Of a stretch of DNA of 64,000 bases, positions 1-49,045 are shown piece after piece. Numbering within the stretch: the first letter of the stretch is position 1; every line of letters starts with the position of its first letter. The notes under the pieces were generated by a model. It was not told the origin of the DNA. It made no database searches and saw nothing but the letters and a program-made list of their open reading frames with translations. A program made the position numbers and the translations under genes. Source of the stretch: Coprobacter sp. (lineage in GTDB: Bacteria; Bacteroidota; Bacteroidia; Bacteroidales; UBA11471); NCBI GenBank assembly GCA_017462265.1, contig JAFTRN010000030.1:89940-153939 (forward strand). Direction: 5' to 3'.

Positions 1-2
1 AA

Positions 3-878
3 TACCCCGTATCCGATCCCGCGCTGGCCATGCTCCGCGGTAACAACTGCACCGACGGTGAGAAAAAGAAGATTTTCCGCTACAACCCCGGCAAATCCCT
101 CGAACTGTTCCCGCCCAAGCACCCATACTACAAAGCACCCAAAGATGCTAAAAAGGCTATAGAAGGAAATTTGACCGAAATGTATAATAATGGCATCGGG
201 GGGCATGTCCCGCCCTCACTTAATACTCAAGAGCAAAAGGCTTGGATTGAAAATGAGCATGCGTTATCCGATGTACTAATAGAGCAAGGAAAGCCGATGA
301 CTCACGAAGAAGCCAATGAACATCACGCAAACCCCAATTATCAAAAGGGTATTCTCAATGGGTATTCTCAAAATTGCCAATCCTGTGTTGTTGCGTATGA
401 ACTACGCCGCCGGGGATATGACGTGGAAGCATTTATGCGTGTTGTTGGAGACGCCAATAATGTACCCGAGAAATTAGCCTATCACACTGAGTTGGCTTGG
501 CGTGCACCGGGTTCTAATGAAATCCCTAAAAAAGCTTTTGCCGGAGGTGTCAAAAGTAGAGATGTTGATAAACGTGGACGTGTGATTACCAAAACTAAAT
601 CATTATCCGAATTAAATGCAGATTTAAATGAGCTAACAAAGGAACCTGGTCGCTATCACTTAAATTGGACTTGGAAAGGCAGAGATATGGGGCATATTGT
701 AACTTGTGAGAAATTTGCTAATGGCGGGATTCGTATCTACGACCCTCAAACTGGGGAAATCTTAAAATGGTCCGAAATCGCTAAGAATATAAAATTAGAC
801 AAAGGGGTCGGTGTTCTTCGTGTAGATAACCTGATTATTAATATGGACGTAATAAATGAGATTGTTAAGCCTAAATAA
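3..878 (+). CDS. Phage MuF/minor head protein (5' part outside window) with C-terminal papain-fold (glutamine deamidase-like, Tox-PL type) toxin domain
   Basis: Frame is open from the window edge (YPVSDPALAM...IFRYNPGK...FPPKHPYY, typical of the end of the Bacteroidales phage MuF domain); then NCQSCVVAYELRRRGYDVEA...GHIV...IYDPQTG, a Cys-His-Asp pattern; codon usage shifts to AT-rich after ~nt 140. Confidence 0.75.
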   Translation, partial: YPVSDPALAMLRGNNCTDGEKKKIFRYNPGKSLELFPPKHPYYKAPKDAKKAIEGNLTEMYNNGIGGHVPPSLNTQEQKAWIENEHALSDVLIEQGKPMTHEEANEHHANPNYQKGILNGYSQNCQSCVVAYELRRRGYDVEAFMRVVGDANNVPEKLAYHTELAWRAPGSNEIPKKAFAGGVKSRDVDKRGRVITKTKSLSELNADLNELTKEPGRYHLNWTWKGRDMGHIVTCEKFANGGIRIYDPQTGEILKWSEIAKNIKLDKGVGVLRVDNLIINMDVINEIVKPK

Positions 879-882
879 ATTG

Positions 883-1122
883 CTATTTAGCTTCTTTGCG
901 AATTTGGCAATATTCATCCCATGGAAGAATACGTGGAGCATTATCTTCTGTAATGATTATATGGAATGGGTAGCCGGTACTCCCCATATTTCCGGCAATC
1001 TCTTGTACATAATAAATCGCAGAGTCATTAACCATACAATCAAACTTTATATAGTTAAATCCTTCAGATTTTGCAAATTCTTTCGCTTTCTTGAATAATA
1101 TGCTTAATTGCTTTGCTTCCAT
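883..1122 (-). CDS. Small hypothetical protein, candidate immunity protein
   Basis: AT-rich 79 aa ORF (MEAKQLS...) convergent on the toxin gene, stops 4 nt apart; TACCTTTG -7 box just upstream of its ATG. Confidence 0.55.
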   Translation of the reverse strand: MEAKQLSILFKKAKEFAKSEGFNYIKFDCMVNDSAIYYVQEIAGNMGSTGYPFHIIITEDNAPRILPWDEYCQIRKEAK

Positions 1123-1128
1123 ATGGTA

Positions 1129-1136
1129 CAAAGGTA
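1129..1136 (-). promoter_or_regulatory. Bacteroidetes -7 promoter box (TACCTTTG)
   Basis: Matches TAnnTTTG, 6 nt before the ATG at 1122, implying a near-leaderless transcript. Confidence 0.5.
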
Positions 1137-1306
1137 TAAAATATATTGAAAATAAAATATGTCACAATGCAAAAAATAAAGAAAAATATTATCGACTACC
1201 TGCCACATATCGTAAATAGGGCGCAAAGCACGATACATTTGTGTCCGCAGGTATGCCGATTGCGAATACGCGAATTGGTAAAAAACTACAAACACTCTAA
1301 TAAACT

Positions 1307-1453
1307 ATGACTATACCACTAATTGATGCCATAATACTTGCCACGGTGTGTTCCCTGCTCACCGCCATAGGCACGGCCATTATAGTAATCAGCGCCTTCA
1401 CCAAAACTCCGGAAAAATGTAGGGACGCTTGGTTCAAGCGTCCGAGGTTATGA
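1307..1453 (+). CDS. Small single-TM hypothetical protein (48 aa)
   Basis: MTIPLIDAIILATVCSLLTAIGTAIIVISAFTKTPEK...; A-rich upstream sequence typical of Bacteroidetes translation starts; 3' end runs into a REP-like palindrome. Confidence 0.4.
   Translation: MTIPLIDAIILATVCSLLTAIGTAIIVISAFTKTPEKCRDAWFKRPRL
1419..1447 (+). repeat. GTAG-type REP-like palindrome, copy 1
   Basis: GTAG-GGACGCTTG-GTT-CAAGCGTCC-GAGG; second copy at 7238-7266. Confidence 0.6.
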
Positions 1454-1648
1454 GAGACTACGAAGCTCCTCCTCTAAGGTGAGACAGGGGCGAACAAGGC
1501 CGAAGAGGAAACACTGAACGTGTTTCCGTGCCGCAGAGAGGGGAGCGCAGTGCTCTGCGCGACGGAGGCCTCGAAGAGGTGCCCGTTAGGGCGGAGGGGT
1601 ATGCAGGAGGTCTGTATAAACAAATCTTAAATATAAAATACTACCACT

Positions 1649-1727
1649 ATGATAAATTCCAAACAAATAAAGCGTAAAATCTTGAACGATATGCGGGTGG
1701 AACTCACCGAGGAGTTCGACCGCAATT
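1649..1727 (+). pseudogene. N-terminal fragment of phage virion morphogenesis protein
   Basis: MINSKQIKRKILNDMRVELTEEFDRN resembles the start of Bacteroides phage virion morphogenesis proteins (..VEL.EEFDRNF..); reads into antisense tape-measure sequence after nt 1727. Confidence 0.6.
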
Positions 1728-2278
1728 ATCATCTCGCTCATCTTGCGGCTTGCCTCCATGGGATCGTCAAGCGATACCCCATACTGGTTCATGGCGGTGG
1801 TAAGCACCTCGGCGGCCGCCACGCCATCGTTGCCCATAAGTTTCGAGGTGGTCTGTATGGCATTACCCATCTCTTGCAGGGCTTTCGGGCATTTGGCAAG
1901 TTCCGGCGATAGTTGCGAGAGCAGTAGCTTATAACCCTCTACCGCCACAGCGGCATCGGTACCGAAGGTTTTTGCACTCTCACGAGCATATCCCTCTATC
2001 TCTTTCAGCGCGTCACCGGTCACACCCGCTATCGCGCTCAAATCATGCATCTGGCTATCGAGAGCGATAAATGGGGTTAGAGTGTCATCGATGGTGTTAC
2101 CCAACCTTTCGAAAAAACCACTTACCATATCAAGCATACTAAATTTAGCCAACCATCTATCCAGTAGGCTCTCATTACTTTTCATGGCAGCGTTGAATTG
2201 TCCTATTTGTCGCCCCATTTCATCTATTGCAGTAGAAAAGTTGCCTTCAATATTAAAACTGTAAAGAATCGTTGCCAT
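1728..2278 (-). pseudogene. Truncated phage tail tape measure protein (TP901-like core)
   Basis: LDSQMHDLSAIAGVTGDALKEIEGYARESAKTFGTDAAVAVEGYKLLLSQLSPEL...AAEVLTTAMNQYG; homology ends after MSEM, at about 184 codons. Confidence 0.8.
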
Positions 2279-2719: not shown

Positions 2720-3703
2720 ATGCGACGATTCAAATATATATTACCTATACTCTTGCTCGGTATGCTGCAAATAGCGGTAGCGCAAGAGGCCGGGACCGGC
2801 TATACGGGCATGATTATAGGGCTGATACTTGTTGCAGTCATTGCCGTCGGGGCATATCTGTGGTATCGACGTCGTAAGAGTACTATTGCCACTACGTCCG
2901 CACCCCTGTCGCTCACCCTTTCCCCGCAACCGATAAGTCGCAACCGCATCTTCACGGTGAAAGGTGTCGAGTTCACGATGATACCGGTCGAGGGAGGCAC
3001 GTTCACAATGGGAGCGACGAGCGAGCAGGGAAGCGATGCCTATCGTGACACGAAACCGGCTCATTCGGTAACGCTCGATAGTTACTATATCGGTGAGACG
3101 GAGGTGACGCAAGCCCTATGGCAAGCGGTAATGGGTGATAATCCGAGCTATTTCAAAGGTGATTTGCAACGACCGGTGGAAAACGTAAGTTGGAACGATT
3201 GCCAAGAGTTTATCAAGAAACTGAACGCACTTACAGGCCGGAATTTCCGCTTGCCGACCGAGGCGGAGTGGGAATATGCCGCTCGGGGAGGTAATAAAAG
3301 CAAGGGCTACAAATATGCCGGTAGTAATAATATAAATGATGTGGCGTGGTATTTTGATAATGCATATTCTGTAGACAGTAGCAGTCCGGCCTACGGCACA
3401 CATAGCGTGAGGACCAAGCAAGCGAATGAACTTGGCCTATACGATATGAGTGGTAACGTATGGGAATGGTGTAGCGATTGGTATGGTGGTAGCTATTATA
3501 GCAGTAGTCCTACGACCAATCCTACAGGTCCTGCGACAGGCTCGACCCGTGTGCTCCGCGGTGGCAGTTGGTACGGCTACGCGTGGTACTGCCGTGTGTC
3601 GAATCGTTTCAGCCACGCGCCCGACATCAGGAACAACCTCCTCGGGCTGCGCCTCGCGGTCGGCAGTTGTGGCTCACCATCTCCTGCCTCCAGGTTGCCC
3701 TGA
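2720..3703 (+). CDS. Membrane-anchored FGE-sulfatase (SUMF1/C-type lectin fold) domain protein, likely DGR target
   Basis: FTMG, YYIGETEVTQALW, RLPTEAEWEYAARGG, NELGLYDMSGNVWEWCSDWY, RVLRGGSW motifs; signal peptide plus TM helix; TAACTTTG -7 box at 2689-2696 supports ATG 2720. Confidence 0.9.
   Translation: MRRFKYILPILLLGMLQIAVAQEAGTGYTGMIIGLILVAVIAVGAYLWYRRRKSTIATTSAPLSLTLSPQPISRNRIFTVKGVEFTMIPVEGGTFTMGATSEQGSDAYRDTKPAHSVTLDSYYIGETEVTQALWQAVMGDNPSYFKGDLQRPVENVSWNDCQEFIKKLNALTGRNFRLPTEAEWEYAARGGNKSKGYKYAGSNNINDVAWYFDNAYSVDSSSPAYGTHSVRTKQANELGLYDMSGNVWEWCSDWYGGSYYSSSPTTNPTGPATGSTRVLRGGSWYGYAWYCRVSNRFSHAPDIRNNLLGLRLAVGSCGSPSPASRLP
3539..3658 (+). other. Putative DGR variable repeat (VR)
   Basis: The 14 positions I score as variable are all NNC codons, consistent with derivation from AAC-rich template codons; GC-rich GGGCTGCGCCTCGC IMH-like end. 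Confidence 0.65.
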
Positions 3704-3710
3704 TGGGTAT

Positions 3711-4277
3711 TCACACAGCTTTAGCACTTTTGCGTGGCTTGATGTCGGTCGCAAAAATAATGAGTGTGATACCCCAATAAATAAATGCCACGGCACACAG
3801 ATATACGATGACAGCCGTTGCCGTTATCGGTGAGAAGAAAAAGAATAACGACAGCAACATCAATAATACCCCATTGAGCATATAAAGCCACCAGCTCGAT
3901 TGCCACTTACGAGCACCGATACCCGAAATCACATATTTCACACCACGATATAGCAACACGAAAGCGAAGAAATAGGGTAATAACATTTCGCTCAATACAA
4001 AGTTGCTCACAAGCAGAAAACCCACAAATAGATCGAAAATTCCGCCAGCAAACCACCAACCCCACCCCGGGAGGCGTCGTGCGATGTCGCCCGCTACAAT
4101 CAACTGGGTAGCACCAAGCAATACCAAAATCCACCCCAGTAGCATCGATATTACCGCATATCCGGCCAGGGGCTTGAATATCAACCATAGTCCACACGGT
4201 ATCAATGCGATACCCATCAATAGAATAGCCCACCAATAGCGGCTCTTCCCCCAATAACTCCATTCATTCAGTTCCAT
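3711..4277 (-). CDS. HdeD/DUF308 family membrane protein
   Basis: Six hydrophobic segments, YWWAILLMG...GWGWWFAGGIFD repeat pattern. Confidence 0.8.
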   Translation of the reverse strand: MELNEWSYWGKSRYWWAILLMGIALIPCGLWLIFKPLAGYAVISMLLGWILVLLGATQLIVAGDIARRLPGWGWWFAGGIFDLFVGFLLVSNFVLSEMLLPYFFAFVLLYRGVKYVISGIGARKWQSSWWLYMLNGVLLMLLSLFFFFSPITATAVIVYLCAVAFIYWGITLIIFATDIKPRKSAKAV

Positions 4278-7237: not shown

Positions 7238-7266
7238 GTAGGGACACTTGGCTCAAGTGTCCGAGG
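7238..7266 (+). repeat. GTAG-type REP-like palindrome, copy 2
   Basis: GTAG-GGACACTTG-GCT-CAAGTGTCC-GAGG; 26/29 identical to 1419-1447. Confidence 0.6.
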
Positions 7267-7412
7267 GGGAAATCATCGTCCGAGAATCCAATAAAGCAAC
7301 ATCTTCGACGTAGATTTTGATAGGGCGCATACCCCTATCCCCATAATTCCACTACGTTACATTATGGGGTTTCTTATAAGCAACATCTTCGATGTATTTT
7401 ACTATTATAATC

Positions 7413-7798
7413 TATTTGTGTCCGATAAAGATTTTAAAAATCTTCGTAAATCTATGATTTAAGATAATTTATGCGATAAAATAAAAAGATAGGCTTATGC
7501 TTGAGTTATAAAAAGATTGCCGTTAGGTAATCGATTTTAACAGCCCCGTATAAGCGAGCCGGTAGGCGAACGCAATGCGGGGAATATAAGGTTTCGTAAT
7601 AATCAATGCCTTTAGGTATTTGACCTATATATAGGCGTGATAATCATTATAGTCCGATACCTACGGCATCGCAAATCAATGGTCGATTTCCACCCCGTAT
7701 AAGCCGATAAATCGGCTTATACGGGGCTGTAATGTCTTATGCCGATGGCATAATGAAATCTTAAAAACAGTAAGTCGTATTTTTATCGGACACCAATA
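7413..7798. mobile_element. Non-autonomous MITE-like element with GTGTCCGATAAA terminal inverted repeats and internal palindromes
   Basis: TATTTGTGTCCGATAAA ... TTTATCGGACACCAATA; internal ACAGCCCCGTATAAGC / GCTTATACGGGGCTGT inverted pair; partial copies at 25898 and 48646. Confidence 0.6.
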
Positions 7799-7857
7799 AT
7801 AAGAATTTTTGATTTAGACTGGGCATAAAAAAAGCACATACATTGTATGTGCTTTTG

Positions 7858-7931
7858 TGGAGTATAGCGGACTCGAACCGCTCACCTCGACACTGCCAGT
7901 GTCGCGCTCTAGCCAGATGAGCTAATACCCC
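7858..7931 (-). tRNA. tRNA-Ala(GGC)
   Basis: GGGGTATTAGCTCATCTGGCTAGAGCG-CGACA-CTGGCAG-TGTCG-...GGTTCGAGTCC...TACTCCA cloverleaf; TATCTTTG -7 box upstream, hairpin terminator 7826-7857 downstream. Confidence 0.95.
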
Positions 7932-8118
7932 TTTCTGCTTTTGCGATGCAAAGATAAAACCTTTTTCTGATTCGTGCAACAAAAAAACGAATTTTTTTTA
8001 ACTTTGCAGTAAAATGCGAAGATCCCCTATGCTTGTCGTGAAATATCCATGCAAGCTTGGTATTATTTCACACGTTTGGCTGTATCTTTGCCGTAAATCG
8101 ATTTTTAACTACCGTCGT

Positions 8119-8424
8119 ATGTATATATTCAATACCACTTATCATGTAGATGACGTCTTGAAAGATGACTTTATCGCTTGGCTACGAGATACCTACATTC
8201 CTGCTGCCACGGCACGTCCCGAGTTACACCGACCGCAGTTGTGCCGGGTGCTTACGGGTGAGGAAACCGAGGGTGAAAGTTACTCCTTGCAATTCCATGT
8301 GGCCGATAATGCCTGCCTCGAAACCTGGTACACCGCGGTGGGGGCCGAGCTCGACATGGCCATACAAGAACGATATGGTGAGCGGGTGATCGGATTCAAT
8401 ACATTACTCGAAGTGCTCGAATAG
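8119..8424 (+). CDS. DUF4286 family protein
   Basis: [10 protein letters not shown]...YSLQF...FNTLLEV; conserved position upstream of ruvC in Bacteroidetes. Confidence 0.8.
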
Positions 8425-47712: not shown

Positions 47713-48684
47713 ATGAAAAAATTTATTCACACATTTCTTTTATTTACAATATTAACTCTTGGTGTATTCGTAATCATTAGTATTGTATTGCCATATAGTA
47801 AAGATGGTTATATTCGAGAACAATTTGTAAAAATGGATTTATTATCAGATACAAGACGAGGTCCATCTATAGTCTTATTAGGTGGTAGTAATTGTGCATT
47901 TGGTTATAAATCTGATTTGTTGGAAAATTCTCTAAAAGTACCTGTAATCAATGCTGGATTACACGCCGGTTTTGGCTTGAAACTAATTGTCGATGATTGT
48001 TTTCGTTATTTACATTCTGGAGATATTCTAGTATTATCTCCGGAGTATTCTCATTTTTTTGAAGAACATACATATGGAGAAAAGCCCTTAGCGGAATTGT
48101 GTTACCTTTCACAAGATTATTTCCGACTATTATGCTATCGGCAACGTATGGTAGTAATAGAGAATCTACCGGCTGTCTTCAGAAGTAATATAGAAAACGC
48201 GGTCGCTACTCAGTTTAATTATCAATTCCAATCTATATATCGTAGTTCGGGATTTAATCGATATGGAGATTTTATCGCTCACCGAGATAAAAATAATGTA
48301 AGTTACCATGGACGTATATCCGTTCATAAACATGAGTCCAAACCTAATATCAAATATTTCAAAGAACTTGTTTCGCAACTCGATACACTTCGACATAGAG
48401 GTGTAGAGGTTGTTTTGTATCCGCCAGCAATAGCTCACTCTGAGTTCATTACTCAATCAAAAAATATTGATTGGGTTAAAATGTCATTACGAAAAGCGGG
48501 TTATTCATTCATTTGTACTCCAGAGGAGACCTCGTATTCCGACAACCTATTTTACGATACGGCCTATCATTTATCTGATTATGGAGCGGAAAAACATACT
48601 AAAAAACTAATTGCACTATTATTGAATCATAAATCAATCGAATCTCCGCATTGTGCCTATAAATCGTCTTATACGGGGCTGTAA
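47713..48684 (+). CDS. SGNH/DltD-AlgJ-like periplasmic partner of the MBOAT
   Basis: N-terminal TM, LLGGSN, INAG, FYDTAYHLS (DxxH-like); directly after the MBOAT. Confidence 0.7.
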   Translation: MKKFIHTFLLFTILTLGVFVIISIVLPYSKDGYIREQFVKMDLLSDTRRGPSIVLLGGSNCAFGYKSDLLENSLKVPVINAGLHAGFGLKLIVDDCFRYLHSGDILVLSPEYSHFFEEHTYGEKPLAELCYLSQDYFRLLCYRQRMVVIENLPAVFRSNIENAVATQFNYQFQSIYRSSGFNRYGDFIAHRDKNNVSYHGRISVHKHESKPNIKYFKELVSQLDTLRHRGVEVVLYPPAIAHSEFITQSKNIDWVKMSLRKAGYSFICTPEETSYSDNLFYDTAYHLSDYGAEKHTKKLIALLLNHKSIESPHCAYKSSYTGL

Positions 48685-48750
48685 TATCTTATGTCGATGG
48701 CATAATGAAATTCCCAAAACTGTATGCTGTATTTTTATCGGACAGTAATA
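48646..48750 (+). repeat. Partial copy of the MITE-like element (type B end)
   Basis: CTTATACGGGGCTGTAATATCTTATGTCGATGGCATAATGAAAT...TTTTATCGGACAGTAATA matches ~7695-7798. Confidence 0.75.
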
Positions 48751-49045
48751 AAATGACATCTTCGATGTATATTATCGAGGCGTCAAATGTTAAAAACCTC
48801 GGAGAGGTTTCTTAGGGGGAAGCCCTACGCATGGGTACCATGAGCACAAGTAAAAGAGAGCAGACGTATTAGAAACGCCAGCTCTCTGGGGTAAGGTTGT
48901 TAAGCACTGACTAAATGGTACGAAACTCGAAAATCGTTTAGTCGAATATTTTGTTCCAAAGCTTACCATGAGGCTGTTGAGGCCGGAATAAACTTATATA
49001 GGGATAACGGATTTCCTTATTAGCGAATTATAATTACCCACAAAA

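Follow-up and report, generated by a model that had tools for sequence, protein, structure and literature searches.

DGRs whose targets lie apart from the element have been documented before: the survey of Wu et al. 2018 reports 73 putative non-adjacent targets for 45 of 372 DGRs, and the sections of it that bear on the present locus also document cassettes with an HRDC accessory gene, variable 5' boundaries, and identical IMH/IMH* pairs (PMC5758913). As far as those sections describe, the closest known system is the HRDC-class "Architecture C" DGR of Treponema denticola with its remote TvpA-like targets (PMC5758913). A second point of reference is the DGR of Bordetella phage BPP-1 (mtd/avd/TR/brt), which is phage-borne, has a single adjacent tail-fibre target, carries Avd, has an IMH that differs from IMH*, and includes a GC-rich inverted repeat for efficient homing.

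Here we analyzed a 64,000-nt stretch of DNA (the window) from a Coprobacter sp. assembly (GCA_017462265.1), in which an initial annotation had flagged an "orphan" variable repeat (VR) at 3539..3658 of a CLec-fold gene. The VR itself is borne out (its quoted sequence is in frame, distinct in composition, and adenine-specific in its differences from a template), though it is no orphan: the template (TR1) and an RT gene are present on contig C30 of the same genome. Our preferred reading, to which we assign a probability of roughly 0.85, is that window positions 3560-3665 are a VR for which TR1 served as the template in mutagenic retrohoming, TR1 belonging to an HRDC-class DGR of chromosomal type on C30. 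All of the defining DGR features that we tested were found, namely the adenine pattern between TR and VR, an RT gene beside the TR, an accessory gene, an IMH, and a lectin-fold target. The HRDC-type "Architecture C" arrangement with remote targets also appears to hold, with an HRDC gene on C30 and VRs on contigs C1 (which carries the window) and C4 that fit TR1. The locus is a clear but ordinary instance of a known DGR system and leaves knowledge of the mechanism unchanged. Coordinates of all features are collected in Table 1.

Table 1. Features of the target locus in the window, of the C30 cassette, and of the second RT gene on contig C13.
Feature	Position	Strand	Details
Phage remnant left of target	window 1..2278		MuF-like minor head protein + glutamine-deamidase toxin domain; tape-measure fragment; no RT (Pfam, PHROGs)
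DGR target gene, 327 aa	window 2720..3703	+	ORF starts with ATG at 2720; signal-like segment, TM helix, FGE-sulfatase/CLec-fold domain, C-terminal VR
N-terminal hydrophobic, signal-peptide-like segment	window 2729..2785	+	residues 4-22, ends AVAQ; Kyte-Doolittle window
Strong transmembrane-type (TM) helix, then RRRK	window 2804..2866	+	residues 29-49; hydropathy 2.4
FGE-sulfatase (C-type-lectin fold) domain	window 2975..3658	+	residues 86-313; Pfam FGE-sulfatase E 8.9e-53
5' edge of TR-like repeat	window 3539..3559	+	4 non-A mismatches to TR1
Mutagenised VR core	window 3560..3639	+	14 substitutions, each at a TR1 adenine, spread over 11 codons; non-A positions unchanged
IMH-like GC-rich VR 3' end	window 3640..3665	+	21/26 bases G or C
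Locus-specific tail, ~12 codons + stop	window 3666..3703	+	no counterpart in TR1 or other targets (alignments)
Cis target, 725 aa	C30 5986..3809	minus	signal peptide, PEGA repeats, FGE-sulfatase domain, C-terminal cis VR
HRDC accessory protein, 154 aa	C30 3673..3209	minus	E 1.1e-16; overlaps RT start
RT, 329 aa	C30 3212..2223	minus	RVT_1
TR1	C30 about 2217..2091	minus	non-coding, asparagine-codon-rich (AAC runs); begins within ~6 nt of RT stop codon
Second DGR-type RT, 285 aa	G000 C13:34272-35180 (locus L010 about 7273-8238)	minus	43% identical to C30 RT

Several properties are shared with the T. denticola system: an FGE-type C-type-lectin-fold target with a C-terminal VR, as in TvpA (2y3c); an HRDC accessory protein instead of Avd; the use of one template for several non-adjacent targets (PMC5758913); and the absence of anything that marks the C30 element as phage. 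The two differ in phylum, the C30 element being of gut Bacteroidota type by its nearest RT relatives, and in layout, since on C30 the TR directly follows the RT stop in the order target-HRDC-RT-TR. The source genome also differs in having a second related RT and TR with their own IMH and targets, and in the window target, unlike TvpA, a TM helix separates the signal-like segment from the lectin domain. With the BPP-1 DGR, the C30 element shares adenine-specific TR-to-VR differences as well as a GC-rich IMH at the VR 3' end and a 5' boundary set by homology (PMC5758913). In contrast to BPP-1, it has an HRDC protein, an IMH equal to IMH* over 26 nt, no significant repeat, and targets on other contigs. 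As with the non-adjacent targets of Wu et al. 2018, the window VR matches a distant TR with A-to-N differences only, minor exceptions allowed (PMC5758913); here, the distance between target and element is not measurable in a fragmented assembly.

The exact 327-aa target sequence is on record in a public protein collection, and its best solved relative is T. denticola variable protein 1 (TvpA; 2y3c, E 1.2e-45). The C-terminal variable stretches of the window protein and 2y3c align to each other, and the window protein appears to be a variable protein of C-type-lectin fold with the VR at its C-terminus. At the nucleotide level, the window gene and its cis counterpart on C30 are 83% identical over 756 nt. 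As first described, the reading frame continues for 14 codons beyond 3658, and a convergent DUF308 gene ends at 3711, past the stop of the target gene at 3703.

Upstream of the lectin domain, the gene seems to have arisen by deletion from a paralogue resembling that on contig C43. Alignment of window 2720-2900 with G000 C43:32691-33291 shows the signal segment joined directly to an internal TM-RRRK segment, and this in turn directly to the FGE domain, without the ectodomain and PEGA parts of this nearest paralogue. The signal-like segment has 82% nucleotide identity with the start of the C43 paralogue, the TM segment is homologous to an internal stretch of it (residues 141-178), and both proteins have a TM helix and RRRK between signal peptide and lectin domain. 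The N-terminal segment would presumably be cleaved. By the positive-inside rule, a TM helix followed by RRRK would put the variable lectin domain of the window protein in the cytoplasm, unlike that of the secreted, PEGA-bearing paralogues.

The sequence of 3539-3658 is as quoted in the initial annotation and is read in the frame of the ORF whose stop is at 3703. Its composition is distinct: 22 of its 40 codons end in C, compared with 64 of 273 in the remaining gene, and its A content is 13% compared with 27%. GC content is 0.62-0.65 over 3500-3700 and 0.43-0.52 upstream. A repeat search of the window gave no second copy of the VR, and the window holds neither RT nor TR, as had been stated. We then used window 3480-3720 as a BLAST query against its own genome (62 contigs, 79% complete). 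Besides the window's own copy, nine matches were obtained at E <= 3.4e-9, consisting of the TR and eight further VR-like copies; seven further rows with E above 3 were counted as noise. The genome search that the initial annotation had proposed, for a copy differing at adenines beside an RT and for paralogous VR genes, was thus successful on both counts, and the TR1 match on C30 (2091-2215, minus strand) supports its suggestion that the VR is served in trans by a DGR elsewhere in the genome.

Across 3539-3665, the VR differs from TR1 at 17 of 34 template adenines and at 4 of 93 non-A positions (Fisher p = 1.4e-8), and all four non-A mismatches are inside 3539-3559 (at 3539, 3541, 3550, and 3559). 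From 3563 to 3665, 14 of 30 adenines are changed while all 73 non-A positions are intact (p = 2.1e-9), and throughout 3560-3665 the 14 differences are all at template adenines, giving 11 rewritten codons in the VR core. The last A-site change is just upstream of the 26-nt IMH, which is identical in TR1, the C30 cis VR, and the window VR, and the first difference from TR1 thereafter is at 3666. The template predicted from the letters of the window differs from TR1, by eye, at four of ~119 positions, all in the first 21 nt, with every AAC correct. A signature seen in sequence alone (NNC codons and a GC-rich end) therefore let the template be predicted almost base for base.

The 5' stretch (3539..3559) was probably not overwritten by TR1 cDNA and would represent retained scaffold; it encodes the RVLRGG that is conserved in the family. 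DGR 5' boundaries are described as variable and homology-dependent, in agreement with the unwritten 5' edge seen here (PMC5758913). Among the NNC codons that had been flagged as mutagenised, acc (3545) and ctc (3554) fall in this stretch with its four non-A mismatches and were probably not written by TR1, ctc being the Leu of RVLRGG.

Because the flanking gene is just 83% identical to the C30 paralogue, a perfect non-A match to TR1 would be unlikely without conversion: the chance is 0.83^73 = 1e-6 at flank-like divergence and 0.92^73 = 2e-3 with the most conserved flank. It is scarcely credible that no retroelement was involved, that is, that DNA-level gene conversion or shared ancestry of FGE paralogues accounts for the similarity and composition bias for the NNC codons. 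The source genome does have many FGE-sulfatase paralogues, and the VR-like ends on C43, C38 (C38b), and C9 fit neither template (11-19 non-A mismatches). However, conversion or drift cannot confine 14 differences to the adenines of a non-coding, asparagine-codon-rich copy located just after an RT gene (Fisher p = 2e-9), and conversion from another VR would not be expected to do so either.

Contig C30 (7,229 nt) carries the target, HRDC, RT, and TR1 on one strand, and the RT and HRDC reading frames are uninterrupted. The best solved relative of the C30 RT is 8ub7_A (E 2.1e-40, aligned residues 2-286), which is named "Reverse transcriptase" and which we take to be the Bordetella DGR RT, making the enzyme homologous to that of BPP-1 if this identity is right. 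The alignment with 8ub7_A displays IGNLTSQ and YMDD, which are DGR RT hallmarks. In NCBIfam, no DGR-specific model scored above cut-off for the C30 RT, and no family-level name was obtained for the RT or the target. An RT census of the genome gave two matches in total, on C30 and C13. Past TR1, C30 encodes a Gp49/HTH toxin-antitoxin-like pair and a cupin gene, with an IS200-like (Y1) transposase fragment at the other contig end. The linkage between C1 and C30 is uncertain, given a fragmented assembly (62 contigs, 79% complete) and uncertain binning of C30.

We observe the TR-VR relation, its adenine specificity, the uninterrupted RT and accessory frames, and the fold homology; the cDNA route and continued rewritability are inferred. 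By established DGR biology, the RT would transcribe TR1 RNA into cDNA, inserting nucleotides at random opposite template adenines, and the cDNA would replace the homologous stretch of any target that shares the GC-rich IMH. The 3' limit of replacement would be fixed at the IMH and the 5' limit by homology, here around 3560-3571. In the window gene, the 11 codons so changed would lie on the face of a TvpA-like lectin fold that binds the ligand. Some of the DGRs described have identical IMH/IMH* pairs (PMC5758913); here, too, IMH and IMH* are identical over 26 nt and so do not mark out the recipient.

A second RT is found with a template, TR2, at the end of contig C13. This RT is without the N-terminal ~65 residues common to the C30 RT and the solved DGR RT, and these are not encoded in any frame of the upstream DNA. 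TR1 and TR2 have very similar cores and different IMHs, and the window VR has the IMH of TR1. We assigned each VR to a template by its count of non-A mismatches. The window VR has 4/95 non-A mismatches to TR1 (three at the 5' edge and one past the 3' end) and 5/81 to TR2 (three in the IMH), and is assigned to TR1. Also assigned to TR1 are the cis VR on C30 (C30a; 2/93 non-A mismatches, both past the repeat 3' end, and 22 A mismatches, versus 8/81 to TR2) and the C4 VR (1/85 and 16 A mismatches, versus 11/81 to TR2). The C38a VR (11/82 to TR1, 4/92 to TR2) and the C21 VR (10/76 to TR1, 3/83 to TR2) are assigned to TR2, and despite the N-terminally short C13 RT, these TR2-type VRs have no non-A mismatch inside the repeat. 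The VR-like ends on C9, C43, and C38 (C38b) are assigned to neither template, with 11-19 non-A mismatches to TR1 and 13-18 to TR2. The C30 element has at least three apparent targets: one in cis on C30, and those on C1 and C4 in trans.

The 824-aa protein on C9 (G000 C9:216-2690, minus strand) has three tandem FGE-sulfatase domains. The last of these ends in a VR-like stretch (11-13 non-A mismatches), which may once have been a target and decayed, or may be served by a DGR that was not assembled.

The similarity of the two templates raises the question of whether TR1 wrote the window VR at all. The writing could instead have been done from TR2, from an ancestral TR, or by a third DGR in the 21% of the genome that the assembly lacks, the match to TR1 then reflecting common descent of the templates. 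This is very unlikely. Consistent with it, the first 21-33 nt of the window VR fit TR2 better, with just two mismatches, both at TR2 adenines; the TR1 and TR2 cores are very similar; and the genome is 79% complete. However, the five non-A mismatches to TR2, three of them in the IMH, compare with none to TR1 over 3560-3665, and the window VR equals TR1 exactly over the 26-nt IMH and the 9 nt past the point at which the C4 VR diverges. The window VR was thus very probably written by TR1.

A more elaborate scenario is one in which two co-resident DGRs split a paralogous lectin family by IMH (TR1 serving C30, C1, and C4; TR2 serving C38 and C21), and the window VR is chimeric, its first 21-33 nt being of TR2 type or ancestral and the remainder of TR1 type, recording a target that was re-assigned via the other element's IMH. 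A single RT might even serve both TR1 and TR2, because the C13 RT is without the conserved N-terminal ~65 residues, and the variable lectin domain of the window protein (TM helix and RRRK) would be cytoplasmic, unlike those of the secreted PEGA-bearing paralogues. As a whole we regard this scenario as doubtful.

Next, we considered whether writing from TR1 continues. In four of four gut-metagenome runs from one study (Logan contigs, which drop rare variants), a 3,626-nt contig covers 3548-4100 with no differences; any of these runs may be the source sample of the assembly. Other letters that appear in the Logan contig comparison come from paralogues and TRs, not from the target locus. Two exact-pattern scans of metagenome contigs, the first for the unique tail and the second for a unique stretch inside the gene, gave no matches. 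The 90% cluster of the target protein has two members, each on six contigs; the variant P0002 carries two substitutions, K->Q and N->Q, neither of them in the VR, which is unchanged. Similarly, among variants of the C30 target, P0004 has two changed residues, neither in the VR, and P0005 has a Gly->Val in an IMH codon, and a full-length variant of the C4 target (P0007) has one changed residue, outside the VR, so that variation in the C30 and C4 targets is restricted to positions other than A-sites. Strain variation concentrated at adenine positions, which the initial annotation had proposed to look for, is not what we see; the variation lies elsewhere. A syntenic orthologue of the target was not found in 40 related genomes, where the neighboring DUF308 gene alone is conserved; the best match among these genomes (74% identity) is a DGR target in G001. 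Altogether, there is no sign of ongoing diversification in contigs or consensus proteins, which cannot show rare variants.

This stasis argues against fast, ongoing diversification, and it raises the possibility that the window VR is a relic, once written by TR1 and no longer rewritable, for example because the gene arose by deletion and carries a foreign 3' tail or because the DGR is silent, its sequence now frozen. We consider this a real possibility, if somewhat short of even odds. The identical VR in the contigs of all four runs and in P0002 with its two substitutions elsewhere would fit. So would the make-up of the gene: the ectodomain and PEGA portions of the nearest paralogue are missing, no inverted repeat follows the IMH, and a decayed phage remnant adjoins it. 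On the other hand, the pristine non-A positions (0/73 changed) and intact IMH argue against an old relic, which should have drifted, and the RT and HRDC frames are uninterrupted. In these data, neither the cis VR nor the C4 VR varies any more than the window VR does, so stasis is not specific to the window locus and may be element-wide or result from sampling.

The initial annotation had suggested dormancy in part because it saw no strong downstream hairpin. Indeed, no significant inverted repeat or hairpin follows the IMH (folding of 3636-3735, z = -0.41), and no significant terminator or hairpin was found 3' of the window VR. The C30 cis VR gives a similar value (z = -0.29). According to the survey, a high-confidence downstream repeat is present in 127 of 372 DGRs (34%) and is not a defining feature (PMC5758913). 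Because the cis VR also is without a hairpin and 34% of surveyed DGRs have one, its absence is uninformative on dormancy. The suggestion of dormancy thus gains support from a VR that is static in the runs and in the strain variant, while the hairpin is a weak argument for it, and present activity is unproven. Returning to the reading that TR1 wrote this VR, the chances that it is still competent for rewriting appear about evenly divided.

The initial annotation had placed the DGR tentatively in the adjacent prophage to the left, as a phage-borne element. The DNA between menD and the target is a ~4-kb remnant with two tape-measure fragments (152 and 230 aa), a MuF/glutamine-deamidase gene, and small ORFs, and housekeeping genes lie immediately upstream of it. 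The remnant is without an RT, which rules it out as the DGR carrier. On the plus strand, at window 1-878 (C1:89438-90817, locus L011 14499-15818), it encodes a fusion of a MuF-like minor head protein with a "papain fold toxin 1, glutamine deamidase" domain.

A phage origin of the C30 cassette likewise found no support. Among 50,697 phage records, none matches the C30 DNA. The C30 RT has 151 matches among phage records, all below 60% identity, with those listed at 35-39%, and one IMG/VR contig matches at 34%. By comparison, identities of 44-61% are found with seven cellular genome contigs, of which the best is titled as an uncultured Muribaculaceae MAG, so the RT is nearer to those of cellular Bacteroidota MAGs (45-61% identity). 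RT homologues are present in 3 of 11 genomes of the genus, source genome included, and the target-RT-TR order recurs in G001. On available evidence, nothing marks the C30 DGR as phage-borne.

With a template and an uninterrupted RT in the same genome, the apparent orphan is resolved, and the target gene takes its place in a hypervariable receptor system with several targets, in a Bacteroidota-type bacterium of the animal gut. The locus adds one HRDC-class element that has targets outside its cassette, and the two related elements with distinct IMHs in one small genome could be used to ask what sets target specificity.

Two other repeats were noted. Several VRs are followed by a 21-nt palindrome, GGACGCTTGG-N-CCAAGCGTCC, which also lies close to TR1 and, in the window, at 1423-1443 and 7242-7262. 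With 54 copies in 2.3 Mb, often near contig ends, it was ruled out as a DGR cis element and is a REP-like repeat. A 102-nt direct repeat with 84% identity is found at window 7703-7804 and 48655-48756, its copies 41 kb apart.
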